A stretch of 64,000 bases of DNA from Mytilus edulis (taxonomy: Eukaryota), in NCBI RefSeq assembly GCF_963676685.1, contig NC_092353.1, positions 29,698,001 to 29,762,000 on the forward strand, read 5' to 3'. Within the stretch, counting starts at the first letter, position 1; every line of letters begins with the position of its first letter. Under the pieces are notes generated by a model that was given only the letters and a program-made list of their open reading frames with translations, searched no databases and was not told the origin of the DNA. Below are positions 728-52,829 of this stretch, piece by piece. The translations under genes and the position numbers were made by a program.

Positions 728-783
728 AATTGTAAACATTATGAAACAAAACTTAAGGATGAATATACACAGGTTCGTTTGAT
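728..783 (+). repeat. 56-bp perfect direct repeat, left copy
   Basis: aattgtaaacattatgaaacaaaacttaaggatgaatatacacaggttcgtttgat is identical to 6237-6292. Confidence 0.95.
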
Positions 784-856
784 GGATGTAATTTTTATAT
801 GGATTAGATACACATGTTTATTTTTATGCAATATTTTTATTTTGTAATTATTTAAA

Positions 857-2050
857 ATGGCTTCAAAGAAACGAAAATCCGCTAATGTTGTAAATTCAAA
901 TGATTCTAGCAAAAAATCAAAAGAGGAATTAATAGCAGAACTAATTGTGATTGGAGTTAATGCTCCTGCTTCATTTAGCCAAAAACAATTACAAGCTTTG
1001 TTACACTCAAATCGTCAACCTATGCCTGCTGTTAATGTGCAAACAAATGATGACACAGAAGTAGTCAATGATATCATATCAGAGAAAACTATTCGTGAAC
1101 TATCGGCCAATGTTAAATCGTTGACCGAAACAGTTAAAAGTCAAGGAGAAATTCTTAAAACAGTAGTGGATCTTCAAAAGAATGCTACCGGGAATGATGT
1201 ATCGCATACTGGTACTCAAATTCAATCGTCATCTCAATTTATCGAAACACAGGGATATAGTGCTTCCGGGAAAGTGTCTGTTGGTATGTTTCCGCACATA
1301 CAAACAGTGTCACAAATCCAGCGACAAAATATTAAAGAAGGTAAGTACATTAATTTAGTTTCTTTGCTTATTCCTGTAAATGAAAATCAAAGTGATACAC
1401 AGCAAATAGAGGCAGATGGATCTATTTTCCTTCTTAAGCCAAAAGATCATCGCCTGCAGCGTGACCTATCTATCCAAGAATACATAGAGGCATTTAACAT
1501 TTACAAAAACATTGTGTGCGAATTCGAAGATTGTCGGGTAGAACTTGACATGTTTTTGCAAGATGTCATAGAAATGGCAACGAAGTTCAAAGGTAACATT
1601 TTCTATGAATACCATAAGGCCTTCGCTAAGAAAGTTGCGGCAATTAAATTAACAAAAGGTTTGACCGTCGACTGGTCAATCAGAGATGAGAAATTGTATT
1701 CTTCAGTTTGCTTAGGGAGAGCTATCAATACATGTGGCGTATGTGGAAGTTCATTGCATAGCACTGAAATGTGTTATTTATCCGATACATCACAGGGCAA
1801 AAACAACCATTCCCAACAAAAGCGCAATCCTACAACACCGTATTCTAAACCACAATCAGCCGATATTGACCAGTACGGAAGACCAAAGCTATTCCACAAA
1901 GGGAGAGAAATCTGCAACTATTATCTCGCTGGTAATTGCTACAGGGGATCCGCGTGCCGCTATGCTCATGTTGACATGAATATGAAATCGTCAACTCAAA
2001 TCAAACCCTCTACAAGTGTACCAAAAACAACCAAACAAGCAAATATATGA
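857..2050 (+). CDS. Gag-like ORF1 of the YR retrotransposon
   Basis: 397-aa intact ORF. Coiled-coil-like segment, CGVCGSSLHSTEMC knuckle and C-terminal CCCH finger (CNYYLAGNCYRGSACRYAH). Lies directly upstream of RT. Confidence 0.85.
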   Translation: MASKKRKSANVVNSNDSSKKSKEELIAELIVIGVNAPASFSQKQLQALLHSNRQPMPAVNVQTNDDTEVVNDIISEKTIRELSANVKSLTETVKSQGEILKTVVDLQKNATGNDVSHTGTQIQSSSQFIETQGYSASGKVSVGMFPHIQTVSQIQRQNIKEGKYINLVSLLIPVNENQSDTQQIEADGSIFLLKPKDHRLQRDLSIQEYIEAFNIYKNIVCEFEDCRVELDMFLQDVIEMATKFKGNIFYEYHKAFAKKVAAIKLTKGLTVDWSIRDEKLYSSVCLGRAINTCGVCGSSLHSTEMCYLSDTSQGKNNHSQQKRNPTTPYSKPQSADIDQYGRPKLFHKGREICNYYLAGNCYRGSACRYAHVDMNMKSSTQIKPSTSVPKTTKQANI

Positions 2051-3682
2051 CTAGATAATGATAATGTGTTAATGCATGCCACGACACCAATTAATGTAGA
2101 TAAGTTAGCATGGGAGCTACAGAGACATCCTGATAGATATTTCGTAAATTCATTAATTAACGGGTTACGTAAAGGATTTTTTACGGGCGTTTCATCTCTA
2201 CCGGAAAAGGTTTTAGAATGTAAAAACCTGCTTTCTACTACAAAATGTCCAGATGACGTGTCCGGATTAGTCAAATCAGAGTTAGACAATAATTTTGTTA
2301 TAGGCCCATTTACGAAAGCCCCTTTTGATATATACAGGGTTAGTCCTGTTGGCATTGTTGAAGGTAAATATTCTAAAAAGAAAAGACTTATACTTGATTT
2401 ATCTGCACCTCACAATAGTGATGAGCATAGTAGTGTCAACGACCTCATCAACAAAGAAGATTTTTCGTTTTCGTATATTAAAATCGATGATGCCATTAAA
2501 ATCATCAAAGAATACGGTTTTGCCTCAAGATGTTGTAAATTGGACGTATCTAATGCATTTAAATTAATCCCTATTCATCCGAGTTTATGGCATTTATATG
2601 GATTTAAATAGGAAAATATGTATTACTTTTACACTAGATTAGCATTTGGGTGTCGTTCCAGTCCTAAAATTTTTGACAATTTATCTATCGCTATGTGTTG
2701 GATTTTACACAATAATTATGGAATTAATACAGTTCTACATCTACTAGATGATTTCTTAACAATCGACAGACCGTCAGCAAATGCCGACGCTACTATGAAA
2801 ACTTTAGTTTCCGTGTTTGCTTCACTTGAAATTCCGATCGCAAAACATAAAACTTTAGGACCGGTAACATGCATCGAATACTTAGGTATAATATTGGACA
2901 CTATTCGTATGGAAGCTAGATTACCCGAAAAGAAATTATGTCGAATTAAGGAATACCTATTGTTTTTCCTCAATCGCAAAACATGTACAAAACGTGAGAT
3001 GTTAAGTTTATTGGGGCATTTAAATTTTGCTATGAGAGTCATTATTCCTGGGAGATCGTTTATATCTTATCTACTTAACATAGCTCACTCTGTTAAAGAA
3101 CTTCATCACCATGTCACTTTAAATTCTAGTTGTAGAAATGATTTATCATTGTGGCATAAGTTCTTAGATCAGTGGAATGGAATTTCTTTCTTTATTGATG
3201 ATAATATAGTAAATGCGTCTGATTTTGATTTATATACTGATGCTGCGTCAACCGTGGGATTTGGAGGTTATTTCAAAAATCGATGGTTTCAAGCGTTATG
3301 GCCCAAAGAAATGAAATTAGATAAGGAATTATCAATGTCTATGGCTTACATGGAATTATATCCTATAGTAATTGCTGCTATTATATGGGGTGATGAGTGG
3401 TCAGGGAAGCGTATTCTATTTTACTGTGATAATATGGCAACAGTTTTAATTATAAAGAAAGGGAGATCAAAATCATTAGAAATTATGAGATTAATGAGAC
3501 GTCTAACTTGGTGTTCCGCAAAATATAATTTTATTATTCACGCTACTCATGTAGCCGGAAAATGTAATACTATAGATGATGCTCTCTCTCCATTTCAGAT
3601 GGATCGTTTTCGTCAACTGTGTCCGACAGCATCAGAGGAACCTTGTCACTGCCCGCCCCACTCAGAAATTCTGTGGAATTAA
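2051..3682 (+). pseudogene. Reverse transcriptase-RNase H of the YR retrotransposon, one premature stop
   Basis: ORFs 2066-2611 and 2618-3682 share a frame and are split by TAG at 2609-2611 (GFK*ENMYY; Trp expected). RT motifs: KKRLILDLS, KLDVSNAFK, LAFGCRSSPKIF, HLLDDFL, YLGIILD. RNaseH motifs: LYTDAAS, MELYPI, FYCDN, HVAGKCN..DALS. Confidence 0.9.
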
Positions 3683-4655
3683 GTTGTGTGATTAATAATT
3701 TGTGGAGTAAAAGTATTAATAGTGCTACAAGAGATGTGTACACATCTGGATATAAGTGTTTTCTCAAATTTCGTACCTCTCAATTCGAGGGAGAAAATAT
3801 TGGAAATGTAATGTCTAATATTTCCGAGGATATATTAATTTGTTTTGTATCATATTGTCAGTCAGTGTTAGATTTGAAATATTCTACTATCAAGTTATAT
3901 CTAGCTGGAATATGTCATTTTTCTATTGCAAATTGTAGTGTCAATCCTTTAGTAGATAATGTAGGTAAACCTTTGCTACGTTTACAAAATATTCTAAATG
4001 GTATAAAGAAAACTGAAAACAAAAGTGTGCGACAAAAACTACCGATTACTTATAGTGTGCTGCAACAGATTTACCAACATTTACAGAAAAGTATTTTCGA
4101 TCCGCATTTAGATTTTACTATGTTAACTGCATCTGTTATAGGTTTTTTCGGTTTCCTGCGTTGTTCTGAATTTACATGCAAACAGTCATTTGATTCAGCT
4201 TTGAATTTAACTATGGATGATGCAGTATTTTTATCTGATTGTCAAGTTAATCTATGTTTGAAGGCATCCAAAACCGACATTTTCCGTCATGGAGTAATCT
4301 ATTTAAAACTAATAACAATATTTGTCCATATGTACAGTTGTCAAAATATGTAACATCCAGAAAAATGAACGGTGCAACAGATAATGATCCGCTATTGGTT
4401 GACAGTAGTAATTTAGCTTTACGCCGATCGTTATTTATAGACAAATTGAAAACAATTCTATCACACTTGGGTTTAAATGCCGATAAATATAGTGGACATT
4501 CTTTCCGAATAGGAGCAGCTACAACTTGTAGTTCTAATGGTATCCAAGATCATATGATTCAAACTTTAGGACGTTGGAAATCTGACTGCTACAGTCGTTA
4601 TATAAGAACATCTGAAGTTGACATTCGTCAAGCTCTTTCGAAAATGTGTAAATAA
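3599..4655 (+). pseudogene. Tyrosine recombinase of the retrotransposon, one frameshift near 4297
   Basis: ORFs 3619-4353 and 4254-4655 together supply the catalytic R (GFLRCSEF), K (SKTD), HxxR (GHSFRIGAAT), W (GRWKS) and Y (SRYIR). The frame switches at HGVI/LFKTNNNICP. Confidence 0.9.
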
Positions 4656-5734
4656 TTACGATTCAAACTTTGTTAGAAGGGAAATTAGTGATTCGTTATT
4701 ATAATTTTTATTTTTTGTTTTGTATTTAAGAAGACTATCGATTTCTGCTTATTTTTGTAAAGTTTGCTCTAATTAGTCGAAAACATATAAATAAGTACCA
4801 ATATTCAATTTGGCACAACCACTGTCTCGGAATAATTTTGGGGATACTCAATGCGTTACAAGGGCAGCATGTGTAGCATTTCGTTTGCATGGGCAATGTA
4901 ATAATGAATTTCATCCATTCTTTACTTGTCACAAAATTATTATCTGAGTTCTCAGGCAGCCCTGAATAAAATGGATAACTAGGCAGCCCTCTCGTCGGGT
5001 GAACGAATCATTTGTTTGTCCATTTGACAGTTCTTTTGGATACATGTTTTAGTTTGCAAATGGTTTTTTCACTCGAGGTTATCCGTCTCAGGTTGCAAAG
5101 TGAGCCCATACCCTCTAAGCATGGGCTGGGCCAGCGCTCAACATGCAGGTATTAAAATTAATTAAATAAACTAAAAGAGTGGGTATACTTGAGTTACATA
5201 TGTTTGACATGGGATGGGCCAGCGCTCAACATGTCACTCGTAGAGAGGTATTTTGAAGTAACATATAATTGTTCTTTGAATTATGCTTCGGGCTCTTGTA
5301 AATACTCTCTTTTAAAAGGCTCGCTTTGCTATTAGGTTCACATTGTTTGAGGTTTCATTCAATACTCTACGAGTTATTTTTCTGTTTGATGTATACTAAA
5401 GTGGCTCGTGACTTTCTCCTTAAAGTATATGGTGAAAGTTATTTGAAGTCACGGTACCACATCTACACTCTGTCGTCAAGTGCAAGTGCCGCGATAGATG
5501 CTCGAATAATGTGAATTTAATTGAGATATGTATTTTATTTTTTATTTTTTAAATACATATCAATTGCTAGCATGTTGCCCGTAACGTCAATTTTATATTT
5601 TGTATTTTTTATTATATTATGTTTTTATTACTTTTGTATAAATATTATGTCCTGAATACAAGCCTGTGTAATTATATATAATAAATATTAGTCATTCTTA
5701 ATTGATTTGATTACTTTAACTTAGGTGGCAATTT

Positions 5735-6100
5735 GAGTTGGTTGACCGTTATGGAATAACCGTTTCACAAATGATATCGGATATGTTCCTTACGTCGTAA
5801 CTACAATCCCCTTCCCTTTCATGAATATGACCTACCGAATTAGACAATTTACCGGATTTGTAATCACATAAGCAACACGACGGGTGCCACATGTGGAGCA
5901 GGATCTGCTTACCCTTCCGGAGCACCTGAGATCACCCCTAGTTTTTGGTGGGGTTCGTGTTGTTTATTCTTTGGTTTTCTGTGTTGTGTCGTGTGTACTA
6001 TTGTTTTTCTGTTTGTCTTTTTCATTTTTGGCCATGGCGTTGTCAGTTTGTTTTGGATTTGTGAGTTTGACTGTCCCTTTGGTATCTTTCGTCCCTCTTT
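5735..6100 (+). mobile_element. 3' fragment of a dispersed Penelope-like retroelement family
   Basis: Closely similar to 7318-7690 and 22355-22720. Encodes the RT C-terminal peptide ELVDRYGITVSQMISDMF followed by a shared 3' tail. Confidence 0.7.
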
Positions 6101-6236
6101 TGCTATACTTCATCAGTCGTTCTAATTCTGCATCTATGACAGATCTAATCTGTACCGTTACACACATTTAAATCTTAAACAGCTGGAGAAAGTTCATCGC
6201 TCGTTCAAATCTTTATCAATAGAAACACGGCTCATA

Positions 6237-6292
6237 AATTGTAAACATTATGAAACAAAACTTAAGGATGAATATACACAGGTTCGTTTGAT
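6237..6292 (+). repeat. 56-bp perfect direct repeat, right copy
   Basis: Identical to 728-783. Confidence 0.95.
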
Positions 6293-6337
6293 AGGCGTCT
6301 GACATTTATCAAATGGAATTACATATAAACAATTTGG

Positions 6338-6344
6338 TATAAAA
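6338..6344 (+). promoter_or_regulatory. Probable TATA box of the F-type lectin gene
   Basis: TATAAAA about 105 bp upstream of the ATG at 6443, with an Inr-like TCAGTT at 6373-6378. Confidence 0.45.
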
Positions 6345-6442
6345 ACCCTTATGATTCATGCCTTTACAGCATTCAGTTTTTTATAGTGTTAAAGAAACGA
6401 CGGATTAAGCTTTATTTCAGAGCTGTATATCGGTATACTAAC

Positions 6443-9400
6443 ATGATGATCGTTAGAGAGCGTTTTACAATTTTACTGTTTTGCCTTACATGTACAGTTC
6501 ATATGTTTGCTGCAAAGTCTTGCAAAGGGAGAACATGTGATGTACGGATGCCGTTACTAGACAATATGAAGGCTCCACTTGTAGCAGAACTTGACGTCTC
6601 TGAAGTTAATAGAGAACTGAAGCAATACATCGAAATCAGTATTAATTCAACGTACAATGAGAATATTGAAGAAATGATTGTTAAAAACTTAGGAGTGCTC
6701 AAGTCTATGATGTTAAAGGAATATTCAAACGAAAAAAAGAGCACAAAACATATGTTTGATATTCAAATTGTTAATATGTTGGATAGTTTGAAAGCAAGAC
6801 AGGATTATCTACAAACAGAATTAAAGGAATATTCCTTTAATTTATCTATTTCTGCTGAACACTTTGAGCAAACATTGATAGATTTGGTACGTGATGTCGA
6901 GGGGAAACTTGATGCAGTGTTTCTTAATATGACCAGACATTACAAACAAAAAATCAATAAACTTTCCGATCGTTTGAAGAAGGAATTCGTCGATTTTCAA
7001 GAAAGTACAGATGACTGGAAAAATAACATCACCCAAACATTATTAGGTAAGCCGATGTTACTAACTTAAGAATGTTCACTATTCTAGTTTTTGACTTTTT
7101 GTCAAATATTCAGAATCCTCTAGTTTTATCCATGTTAGTGCCCCCAAAAACTTCCCCGCTAACCCTTATTTTTCTTTTCATAATTTTACTACATATTGTT
7201 TAAAATGTCTGTTTTGGAACTTCTTAGGAAGAAAGATAAGAAGTTATCAATATCCTTTAACTTTACTTTCCGCTATATAGATGATGTTCTCTCCGTAAAT
7301 TTTACGGACGCCATCATGAGTTGGTTGACCGTTATGGAATAACCGTTTCACAGATGATATTGGATATGTTCCTTACGTCGTAACTACAATCCCCTCCCAT
7401 ATTCATGAATGTGACCTACCGAATTAGACTGTTTACTGGGTTTGTAATAACATGAGCCACACGACGGGTGCCACATGTGAAGCAAGATCTACTTTTTCTT
7501 CCGGAGCACCTTAGATCACCCCCAGTTTTGGTGGGGTTCGTGTTGCTTAGTCTTTAGTTTTCTATGATGCATCATGTAAACTATTATTTGTCTGTTTGTC
7601 TTTTTTCATTTTTAGCCATGGCTTTGTCAGTTTATTTTCGATCTATGACTGAGTTTGACTGTCCCGCTGGTATCTTTCCCCTCTTCTTTATAAATATTGG
7701 TCAGGTAATTTTTTTAACGATACAAAATTGTCATATTGTTTATAGACTATAAACGGGAAATACATTTTTTATAGTGATAAATAGAAAATTACACCACAAA
7801 TTGACTACTGGGCTGGTGATACCCTCGGGGACGGAAACGTCCACCAGCTATGGCATCGACCCAGTGGTGTGAATAGTTATCAAAAATATTCTGTTGGAAT
7901 TTTTTCTATGTAAAATACAGCCTTAAAATATGATAAACACATAGTTTTCATTATCAATATGAAAAGTCTTTCACGTGAATAACAAACATCTATCGAAATT
8001 TGCACATTTTATTTAATATCTAGACCGCTTGCTATCTGCTTTTTCAAAATAGAAGAAGGAGGAAGATACCCCAGCTACCTTAACTTAGTTTTTTTTATCA
8101 TGTCAATTGCTACTGATTTTTCTCCTTGTTGCAGGCATATACTGTGGATTCATTTATTTTCGTGGGTATCAATTTTTGTGGTTAAAGGAAAACTTTCATA
8201 ATCTTAGATATTTGATTTCGTAGTTTTGCCAATCTCTGCATACAAAGCCTGTGCGAAATGTATAATTCGTCGACGTTTGAATTCGTGGTGCACCTGTATC
8301 CACGAAAAAAAAATTTCAACAAAGTATTAAAGAAGTCACAATAACTGCTAACATCCACTTCATTTGACCTCTGTTGGATAGTTGTCAAGTTGGTTATCAT
8401 ACCACATCTCTTTTTATATGTGTTTATATAACATACCAGAAAATAGTAGCTAGGGAAAAGGCAATCGGCAAAAACTGCAAAAACATACAAATCTATAAAA
8501 CCAATGCTAGACTTTTATTAATCTAATTGTAATATCGGTTTCGTTATTGCAATTATTCGTTCCCTTTGTATCCAAACTTTATGTAAAGTCATATCAAAGA
8601 TTATTGTTGATGTCCTACTTCAATAAACATACAATTTTTTGTTGAGAAACAGTGCTAGTTTACATTCAAACTTGATACATCTTGGGTATCACGATTGTAC
8701 ATTCAACATCATGTCAGAAACTATTTTTGAGAGAGATTTTTAAATCTACGAAATTCTTCTGTCCACTTTAAAATTGGATTTATAAACAACAATGTAAAAA
8801 CATCAAGCTATATGATCATGATACTTAAATCATATTAAAAGCTTTCTGAAGTGTTGTCTAAGTGTGTCATTTTCGAATTATAGTGTATTTCTTAACTTAA
8901 TGTTTTTTTAGACAAGTACATCATTGAAGTTTCCTTAGATGACAAACATGTACAGCAAAGTTCAGAATATTACACCAAGACGTTTCCTGCAAGTAATGCC
9001 ATTGATGGTGATCTCTCCACATTCTCACATACGTCGTCACAAACCAATCCATTTTGGATTCTTGACCTGGGAACCGTGTTTACAGTGAAAAGAATACAAG
9101 TCTTTGCTCGTACAGACTGTTGTGGTAAGTTAAAAAAAAAACTGGTGACAACTATTCTTTTTCATTGTGAAAATGTGAACGATATCATGATTGTTTTTTA
9201 AACCTTTTACAGAAATATGGTTATCCACTGTTGTGCGCTGTGTATAAAAAGTAAAATGTATATATAACATTAAACCTCGACAGCTGCATATAGTTCCTTA
9301 AACATTCTTCTTCATTTTGTAATTACCTAAATTATTTTCTATTTTTGTGATGAATTGACGTCCATTATTGATGAGAACGCAAGTCGCAAGTTTCAGAAAC

Positions 9401-51400: not shown

Positions 51401-52829
51401 ACAAAACCATCTACACCTGAACCAACTAATGCATCTACTCCTGAACCTACTAGACCATCTACACCAGAGCCAACAAAACCATCAACACCAGAACCAACAA
51501 AACCATCAACACCAGAACCAACTAAATCATCTACACCTGAACCAACCAATTCATCTACACCTGAACCTACCAGACCATCAACACCAGAACCAACAAAACC
51601 ATCAACACCAGAACCAACAAGACAGTCTACACCCGAACCAACCAAGCCATCTACACCAGAACCAACGAATGCATCTACTCCTGAACCTACTAGACCGTCT
51701 ACACCTGAACCAACAACACCGAAACCAAAGAAACCCACGCCATCACCAATAAACCCAGATTACTCAAAAGAACAACCAACACCATCCCCAACACTTCCAA
51801 CATTAAGTCTGTCATCGTCTGGTCCAAAAGGTAAACAGTTTTTTGATGTTATTTCAAAGTATTGCTCTATCTTTGTGTGACATGATATCAATCACAATAC
51901 TGACAAAACAAACTATACTAAAATAACTAGATGTAACACAATATGTGCTAATAAAAAATGATTTGACATTGACATCATAGGATTCATAAGTGAAAAGAGA
52001 CAGTTTCAAAGAAAAAAATAACATATAGGAATACTAGTACAATGAAGTAAAATAAACCAAATCTGCCAATGAATGTCTGCGGTAACAATAAAAAAAAGTC
52101 TTTTCAGTGAGGACACAAAATTCTAAGGAAAATGAAACAAAACAGATTTTTCATCTGACATAATATTTCTGCAAACTAGACATTTTTCGATGTATATGAA
52201 CATCTACGGTAATAATAGAAAAATGTCTATCAAATTAGTGAGAACACAAAAGTACTGATAAAAGAGGACAGAAAACACTCACTTGTCAATGTGGGTGAGA
52301 AGTTATTAATCAAACGACTTTTGTCAATGTATGTTTTATATTCAAACAACAAATACATATGGTCATATTTGAATTATTTTTGTTCAGATCTTGTTGACGG
52401 TCAAACGGATAATCACTATGTTTGAATATAAACGTTCCTGTATACTTAATCTAATTTACTTGCTTCTTTACAGTATGTAGTACAAATTTTGTGGAACCTG
52501 TTCCAACGTGTTGTAAAGTGTGCGCATGTCCAGGTGCACAGGTGTTTGGACGAGTAATAAATGAACTCGGTGAACCCATTCCTAATGCTGAAATCTCGTT
52601 CTCGGGTTGTGAATGTGTACGATATTTAACAGATCCATCTGGAAATTATGAAATCCTTAACATTTGTGTTGAAGGACATGAAATGTTATATGAACATCCG
52701 GGTTATATGGCCTCAAAAGTTTTACCAGTGCCTGTAGTACCAGGTGGAAAATTCTGGAAAGCAGATAACATTCTAAGAACAAAACCGGTTGTTCCCGGAC
52801 TTAATGTAACACAAACAGTTACTGGTTGA
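29203..52829 (+). CDS. Secreted ShKT-repeat mucin with CILP-like/carboxypeptidase-regulatory-like C-terminal domain, 16 exons, ~1401 aa
   Basis: Exons 29203-29308 (signal peptide MFSIILVLLAAVSLVNG), 30770-30880, 31854-31979, 35519-35569, 36061-36162, 36727-36837, 37174-37299, 39127-39177, 40670-40729, 41480-41590, 42033-42155, 42817-43002, 43925-44035, 44322-44441, 49476-51830, 52474-52829. All introns are GT-AG phase 1; total 4206 nt. Eight 6-Cys ShKT modules (C.D...C......C.......C...C..C). AATAAA at 53178. Confidence 0.85.
32685..35205 (-). mobile_element. 5'-truncated non-LTR retrotransposon (RTE-X-like LINE) in intron 3 of the ShKT gene
   Basis: RT ORF 33739-35097 (FRPITVISC, QAGFR, FVDFAKAFDTV, GVRQG, LYADD), frameshift ~33770, C-terminal ORF 32849-33754 with IETGRW..C..C...GDEFHY..C. 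3' AATAAA plus (GAATCTT)n tail at 32685-32712. tgtat duplicated at 32680-32684 and 35206-35210. No endonuclease present. Clade is from motif recall. Confidence 0.88.
36354..36512. mobile_element. Short MITE
   Basis: TIRs cagaggcggat / atccgccactg, with gtata on both flanks. Confidence 0.7.
38262..39002 (+). mobile_element. Non-autonomous Helentron/HINE-like element with ~400-bp internal duplication
   Basis: Starts actagaacacacccgtgatatcgcgggt (small palindrome). 38420-38575 resembles 38822-38975. Ends ..attatagat. Confidence 0.5.
45353..45417 (+). repeat. (AAT)n microsatellite
   Basis: About 21 perfect AAT units. Confidence 0.95.
45663..47048 (+). CDS. DUF1647-like (putative GT-A-related) membrane protein, single coding exon, nested in intron 14 of the ShKT-mucin gene
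   Basis: 461-aa intact ORF with TM LILGLVQFILITGTMTFFIYMV. Motifs IITAMS, LVIYDFGLS, CEIRPFPFEKF, YALKPLMI and VIWAD.YIRF match my recollection of DUF1647. Probable 5' exon ending 45227 (ATG|gtaaga), acceptor at 45628. Confidence 0.75.
   Translation: MLCLYLSILAIWKGILCIRRRRRSKKDIEIETICEKDAIENDEKPDKKKCSGKHLILGLVQFILITGTMTFFIYMVNERTEKSCGQLEIPDKWKCQFNHFFNTNHEVKVYQHFNCQSVTNKTFEENLNVIHGYASNMSDKITKVLNVRVSHSPFLNLFENKTKTKLELNSQLSKNESREEDNTQLPKLIQNEVKSFLYIIHKIGKSAHKPDYGKQPNKPASPAIITAMSDENINEGKAFLKNVVRKIYPLQDIQRLVIYDFGLSKDHINYLAIRCSFCEIRPFPFEKFGNLTIHYALKPLMIGLSLEEFKTVIWADPYIRFQPVYLSNVVKSAQKYGIQAAKNYENVRITNKDVRRNVIKYLGEETCMDTFDEIQSKFLVFSRDSSAYDIVLPWIQSSVGYGEMLKGNFNQSVTSIYNPVEETILDIILNRLYNRNMSSILMDMNDYVYIDKHVIYNAISH
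47415..47635 (+). mobile_element. Retrozyme fragment with core-mutated hammerhead (47547-47594)
   Basis: gagcgtca-CTAATGA-gttgttttatagac-GAAA-tgcgcgtc-tgacgc (G5 to A). Further decayed copies at ~47160-47245 and 48755-49110. Confidence 0.65.
49990..51720 (+). repeat. Coding minisatellite, 24-bp unit (STPEPTKP) with higher-order repeats
   Basis: acaccagaaccaacaaaaccatct repeats. A 72-bp super-unit occurs ~4 times at 50166-50455, and PTNASTPE-PTRPSTPE blocks recur. Confidence 0.95.

Follow-up and report, generated by a model that had tools for sequence, protein, structure and literature searches.

A Ngaro-type retrotransposon of Mytilus edulis likely expresses its tyrosine recombinase from a spliced RNA, as a fusion to the N-terminus of Gag

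In tyrosine-recombinase (YR) retrotransposons, the recombinase frame is often without a start codon, and the route in print for the Ngaro group is a proposed frameshift. Ngaro elements are described, in the portions available of three accounts, as carrying gag, RT/RNase H and YR genes, split direct repeats arranged as A1...B1-A2-B2 and a short -1 overlap of YR, and as having no methyltransferase (PMC7192593, PMC9210276, PMC13003380). Ribosomal frameshifting is given as the probable route to their YR (Poulter and Butler, 2015, in the passage quoted by PMC13003380). Two retroelement systems in which splicing is used are described in sources of which excerpts were accessible. The SD' RNA of murine leukemia virus (MLV) joins a donor inside gag to an acceptor in pol and encodes an in-frame Gag-N/integrase protein, P50, which is packaged and partly nuclear (PMC10496198). 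In Ty1/Copia elements, conserved alternative splicing sets the ratios of the proteins (PMC5580714). Finally, DIRS-like families of Xenopus have a predicted LAP2-related domain, of LAP2alpha type, in their ORF1, and the accessible part of this account draws no tie between that domain and the recombinase (PMC9210276).

The stretch analysed here, hereafter the window, comprises 64,000 nucleotides of the 1.37 Gb M. edulis genome and contains, at 787-6239, a decayed YR retrotransposon of the DIRS order and Ngaro type, whose closest named relatives are Mytilus proteins (96% identity). Its gene set, split direct repeats, short -1 overlap and missing methyltransferase are shared with the Ngaro elements, as far as the available portions of their descriptions go. 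A gag-like ORF, RT/RNase H and a tyrosine recombinase follow one another in that order, and the YR/RT-RNase H overlap is brief and in the -1 frame (3580-3682). No Pfam match to a methyltransferase is found after RNase H, where only 28 codons of the RT frame remain beyond the Gln of DALSxFQ, leaving no room for one. The traits of DIRS1-like and PAT-like elements are absent, the repeats being direct, not inverted, and a methyltransferase domain being missing. The element thus carries the Ngaro features tested and is assigned to this type from its sequence by features, the tree holding families of its own genome only.

The complete repeat layout is seen in L024, a fuller copy of the family, where repeat A (4919-5207 and 633-921; 289 nt, 98.6%) and repeat B (1847-1922 and 512-587; 76 nt, 92%) are ordered A1-ORFs-B1-A2-B2. 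The window copy retains just parts of A1 and B1 (Table 1); the greater part of A1 and almost the whole of A2-B2 are gone. It cannot itself make a full RT or YR, because of an RT stop and a YR frameshift, and in this broken copy the matches to RVT_1 (E 7.6e-5) and Phage_integrase (E 1.2e-4) are both under the Pfam cut-off. A perfect 56-nt direct repeat flanks it (728-783 and 6237-6292); this resembles a target duplication, and such an insertion is unusual for a YR element. A dispersed common repeat of about 370 nt lies inside the 3' region of the element (5735-6101) and again 1.58 kb downstream (7288-7697).

Table 1. Features of the element and of the predicted splice, in window coordinates
Feature	Position	Strand	Basis or remark
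Left split direct repeat A1, 3' remnant	787..854	+	About 289 nt in fuller copy; L024 matches 787-854 at both its A copies
gag ORF, 397 aa, C-terminal CCCH zinc finger	857..2050	+	ATG at 857; PF00642 E 1.1e-5
Helix-loop-helix, HeH/SAP/LEM type (Gag 22-53)	920..1015	+	After basic N-terminal tail; kept in spliced form
Long amphipathic helix (Gag 76-110)	1082..1186	+	Predicted structure; kept in spliced form
Splice donor AAG/GTAAGT, phase 1	1338..1346	+	Cut 1340/1341 in Gly162 of E-G-K, after 161 codons + 1 nt
Facultative intron, 2,258 nt	1341..3598	+	Would take out Gag core, zinc finger, all RT, most of RNase H
gag stop TGA, then CTAG	2048..2054	+	RT in same frame; likely readthrough signal
RT/RNase H frame	2051..3682	+	Stop at 2609-2611 in this copy; ends 84 nt past acceptor
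Tyrosine recombinase	3580..4655	+	-1 frame to RT; PF00589 E 1.2e-4; frameshift near 4294 in this copy
Splice acceptor, pyrimidine tract + CAG	3581..3598	+	Within RNase H DALSxFQ codons; CAG = Gln codon
Split direct repeat B1	4863..4942	+	L024 comparison; A-B joints in assembled public runs

Our results point to splicing as the way in which this recombinase is reached: the Ngaro-type element likely expresses YR from an alternatively spliced RNA in which the YR frame follows on 161 N-terminal codons of Gag. A fusion of about 515 residues would be expected in intact relatives, the YR being 350-359 codons long in most main-clade families. An earlier note on this DNA, made from the letters alone, had proposed such a splice, and its phase-1 donor at 1340/1341 and acceptor at 3598, which would place 161 residues of Gag in front of the YR frame, hold at these very bases. 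As the YR frame is open from 3580, position 3599 is a second codon position (phase 1), matching the donor phase, and the 2,258-nt skip, when recomputed, indeed lands in the YR frame. The note had also placed the first ATG of this frame, at 3811, downstream of an N-terminal helix; the alignment agrees, this ATG being 71 codons past the acceptor and beyond a conserved T-x-x-x-Y helix. Its description of the donor as a perfect GT site applies to the window, which fits the U2-type consensus at 9/9 positions, but does not extend to the family, where GT is a minority allele. Nine own-genome matches show GC in five cases, GT in two (one being the window) and a decayed AC in two, and the three public runs that cover position 1342 all read the GC form.

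The predicted junction was looked for in four public runs from four studies, of which assembled contigs were compared with positions 780-5300, the RNA nature of all four being guessed. The search proposed in the earlier note was successful in one of the four: run X6 holds a joint 1338->3597, with a skip of 2,258 nt and GT..AG ends once the cut is moved by +2 (two letters are ambiguous), and it thereby coincides with the predicted junction to the base. In the joined contig (depth 8.2), 949-1338 is followed by 3597-3626, and an unspliced contig of the same run covers 1851-3626 (depth 9.9). The last 30 letters of both are the first 30 of the YR contig (3597-5005, depth 14.5). The joint is thus carried by one contig with 30 letters on its short side, the bridging threshold being 31. 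Coverage in X6 is absent at 1339-1521, and neither this gap nor the contig depths are taken as measures of expression. The contigs of the other runs (X1, X2 and X3) pass both sites unspliced.

Conservation of the acceptor was assessed in two collections. From the M. edulis genome, 79 stretches were taken, and the analysis used all 60 that were added later, six of the initial 19 and the window; 65 anchored loci fall into 25 families, with RNase H identities of 33-77% between representatives (L089 and L111 have no anchor). From metagenomes, 70 of 80 loci were anchored and make up 38 families, 8 being without the DxxSR anchor and 2 being mis-anchored and dropped. The test asked for a CAG in the RT frame, a pyrimidine tract and an AG-free zone at codons 5-13 after the Asp, a codon window that was picked after viewing the data and is identical in the null. 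An in-phase acceptor is present in 25/25 own-genome families, each other phase giving 1/25 and the null 1.4% of 988 control windows, and in 36/38 metagenome families, the other phases giving 0 and the null 5.3% of 1,199 windows; two metagenome families have no acceptor. These frequencies, together with the exact joint in a public run, bear out the view of the earlier note that the agreement between the sites goes beyond chance. In all 25 own-genome families, the acceptor has 10-13 pyrimidines in 15 positions, and AG is absent from a zone of 18 nt or more. Its CAG lies on the Gln of DxxSRxQ in 20 of them and is shifted by 6 nt, with the phase kept, in the five others, while in the metagenome families it lies at codon 6, 8, 9, 11 or 13 after the Asp, always in phase.

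The codons used at the acceptor are frozen. Among the own-genome families, which share ancestry and whose counts are thus not independent, Ser is TCY in 25/25 (as against at most 50% in nine other conserved Ser columns), Arg is CGN in 25/25 (at most 65% in five other conserved Arg columns) and Gln is CAG in 20/20 (background 105/260). The pattern is not accounted for by shared ancestry, since the other conserved columns have drifted. The RNase H motif shows a splice-driven synonymous constraint. A separate bias is observed at RT codon +11 past the acceptor (about 3629-3631 in the window), where a conserved Ala is GCA in 20/24 families, far above the other Ala columns; its cause may be an exonic splicing element or a constraint that the YR frame imposes.

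The donor is conserved less widely. In a quick tree of the own-genome families, a main clade of 18 families is found, in which the donor lies on the Gly of the Gag motif I-I-x-G. This glycine codon reads G/GY in 15/15 scorable main-clade families, compared with at most 13/17 GGY in 16 conserved RT Gly columns, and 14/15 of these donors keep A at +3, though the next residue varies between Lys, Arg and Met. Metagenome matches to the Gag motif have GY at the donor glycine in 17/22 cases (background 59%). In the distant clade, by contrast, the glycine codon is GY in only 1/7 families, and candidate donors further upstream are indistinguishable there from background. Strong phase-1 donors are common in any case (36 in 34 kb of RT). 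The idea put forward in the earlier note, that splice signals and phase are shared by relatives, is thus upheld almost universally for the acceptor and within the main clade for the donor, and fails for the donor of the distant clade.

Three other explanations have to be weighed against splicing. It is unlikely, in our estimate, that YR comes mainly from programmed -1 frameshifting in the RT/YR overlap of about 100 nt, as part of a Gag-RT-RH-YR polyprotein, with the splice as a side product. The -1 position of the YR frame and the conserved length of the overlap agree with such a mechanism, as do the three runs in four with unspliced contigs only, and frameshifting can coexist with splicing. 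Yet no in-frame X-XXY-YYZ heptamer is found in the RT/YR overlap of the window, and a canonical one is rare among its relatives (1/24 own-genome overlaps, one rearranged copy being omitted, and 2/38 metagenome overlaps), non-canonical sites being possible. This test is able to detect slippery sites, because all four families with a -1 gag/pol overlap, used as a positive control, hold A-AAA-AAC at one place (7/8 copies). Furthermore, frameshifting leaves unexplained both the frozen TCY-CGN-CAG codons and the phase-keeping shifts of the CAG. We give slightly less credit still to the acceptor being real while the functional YR is initiated at an AUG of its own, or is joined to another donor in the leader or elsewhere in gag, with a dispensable or variable Gag part. 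An in-frame AUG ahead of the YR domain, named in the earlier note as an argument against the splice, does occur within the first 40 YR codons in 9/24 families; it is absent there in 15/24, including the window's family, whose first ATG lies past the conserved helix. The distant clade, with the glycine donor missing in 6/7 families, and five database proteins joined further upstream in gag (P0019, P0020, P0038, P0060 and P0066) speak for other donors. Most of these upstream-donor models nevertheless retain the HeH segment, and the joint observed in X6 uses the glycine donor. An own AUG or another donor is likely to be the case in some other families, less so in that of the window.

The least probable explanation, to which we give very little weight, is that the X6 joint comes from a deleted genomic copy or from an assembly artefact, the codon pattern having another cause, such as an RNA replication element. 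The guessed RNA nature of X6 and its lack of coverage just beyond the donor leave some room for it, and internal deletions are common in this element family. On the other hand, the joint lies at bases that had been predicted beforehand, with GT/GC..AG ends and just 2 nt of microhomology, whereas the other deletions of the family fall elsewhere. Among the own-genome matches listed (9 and 23), there is no copy that breaks at the donor or starts at the acceptor. A copy deleted exactly in this way would, moreover, most simply be a reverse-transcribed spliced RNA.

Splicing would leave Gag and RT to be expressed from the unspliced RNA. In the window and at the homologous sites of L027-L109, TGA-CTA separates gag from an RT in the same frame in 11 families and TGA-CTC does so in one, and most TGA-CT families have no ATG ahead of the first conserved RT motif. 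The TGA-CTA(G) of the window matches what we take to be a stop-codon readthrough context. A second acceptor, at the AG right after the gag stop, was considered and rejected: families with TGA-CTAC, TGA-CTAT or TGA-CTC lack this AG and still keep TGA-CT, so that readthrough fits the main clade better. Four families (L076-L084) form a sub-clade with a support of 100 that has switched to a -1 gag/pol overlap, its conserved A-AAA-AAC lying some 1,590 nt ahead of the acceptor. In the distant clade (L085-L107), gag/RT overlaps are long, and most families carry after YR an extra ORF of about 210-240 codons, probably an SGNH hydrolase.

Joins of Gag to YR are also found in database proteins, of which 70 with at least 395 aa were examined. 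In 19 of the 70, Gag is joined to YR at the glycine of I-I-x-G (7 by profile and 12 by eye). These models span scallops (XP_021367462.1), oyster (XP_062587031.1), mussels (XP_076086765.1 and XP_063404516.1), abalone (XP_048259505.1), the coral Porites lutea (XP_073258365.1) and the fish Chanodichthys (XP_067218215.1). In a further 31, RT is joined to YR, several of them taking the same acceptor with scattered donors inside RT; gene predictors thus use this site in any case. The gene models are predictions; what they indicate is that sites at corresponding positions can be recognised in several phyla, which is not evidence of the splicing as such. One protein, P0058, is a complete Gag-N/YR fusion of 586 aa recorded on an ENA contig of 3,717 nt. 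With the 2.2-kb intron of its relatives, the unspliced form would need about 3,980 nt; the contig is about 250 nt too short for this and is thus probably without the intron. Many RefSeq models of 520-630 aa labelled "uncharacterized" could be explained by a Gag-N/YR splice. A search of a viral collection gave just three weak, phage-like integrase loci.

What the splice would add to the recombinase was examined on predicted structures and profiles. The cut comes just after a short helix (153-160) and ahead of the folded Gag core, so that the retained piece is without core and zinc finger. It holds two predicted helices (22-32 and 42-53, pLDDT about 94), and the long helix at 76-110 is a probable coiled coil. 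In profile searches, the Gag N-terminus matches 2out (E 4e-4) and the LEM-like domain of LAP2 (1h9e, E 0.026). Pfam HeH is matched by 3/13 members, at best with 1.6e-5, while the window member matches Thymopoietin alone (E 0.017). SAP chains rank top in a structure search, as a weak match (Z 5.1, rmsd 5-6 A, 47-48 aligned). The indications that this piece carries a SAP/LEM-like fold are weak but consistent. A search of a protein atlas with Gag 1-161 gave no usable match, and a Foldseek search with full-length Gag returned no match at E <= 0.001, so that we do not propose a capsid fold. Because the piece lacks core and finger and has this putative fold, nuclear or DNA tethering seems at least as likely as the targeting of YR into Gag particles, which was the role suggested in the earlier note. 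The LAP2 match recalls, by description, the ORF1 domain in the available part of the account of the Xenopus DIRS-like families (PMC9210276).

In the mechanism that we propose, the unspliced RNA would serve as genome and as Gag message and would also yield Gag-RT-RNase H, via the likely readthrough of TGA-CTAG. A fraction of the RNA would be spliced, from a usually weak GC donor to the acceptor hidden in the DALSRFQ codons of RNase H, and the weakness of the donor would hold most of the RNA at full length. Through the splice, YR could gain an initiation codon together with the basic tail, the SAP/LEM-like fold and the long helix of Gag. These grafted Gag parts are predicted to take it to the nucleus and to DNA, and perhaps to co-assemble with Gag.

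Among known systems, and judging from the excerpts available, MLV SD'/P50 is the closest in mechanism to this gag-to-YR splice (PMC10496198). P50 contains only the last 116 residues of integrase and is accessory, the working integrase of MLV being made from Gag-Pol; here, unlike in MLV, the whole recombinase lies behind the splice, and most families have no other visible start for it. In Copia, the accessible text has the spliced RNA encode Gag alone, whereas here it would encode the integration enzyme, with the Gag core and RT removed (PMC5580714). Likewise, the route in print for Ngaro YR is probable ribosomal frameshifting (PMC13003380, in the passages available), while our data favour a Gag-N/YR fusion made by splicing. 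The earlier note knew of no such description for Ngaro or DIRS elements, and its impression agrees with ours: no report of a spliced YR or of UGA readthrough in these elements was found in the literature searched, a prior remark in Goodwin and Poulter (2004), Poulter and Goodwin (2005), Poulter and Butler (2015), Repbase or supplements being possible. The accessible parts of PMC9341512, PMC7192593, PMC9210276, PMC5890265, PMC4157794, PMC8547959, PMC3783388, PMC6681497 and PMC5633606 contain no spliced YR. With a defined junction, the question of how YR is expressed can be put to existing RNA-seq. The protein to be studied is redefined as well: entry into the nucleus, the choice of targets or packaging may depend on an N-terminal module that the bare YR frame lacks.

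We lean, by a little, towards a broader reading. Throughout the Ngaro elements of animals, those of corals and fish included, integration would be carried out by a spliced Gag-N/YR fusion and not by the bare YR. DALSR would have acted as an acceptor for more than 500 million years, and the splice would equip the enzyme with a chromatin tether of SAP/LEM type and with a helix for oligomerisation. Three decoding devices would then be combined in one short RNA, readthrough or -1 frameshifting for Pol and splicing for YR.

Two further observations concern the window outside the element. A 246-codon open frame at 6329-7069 has no Pfam match. Finally, positions 50001-52000 display an extreme strand skew (GC skew -0.64, AT skew 0.48), which is probably due to a simple repeat.
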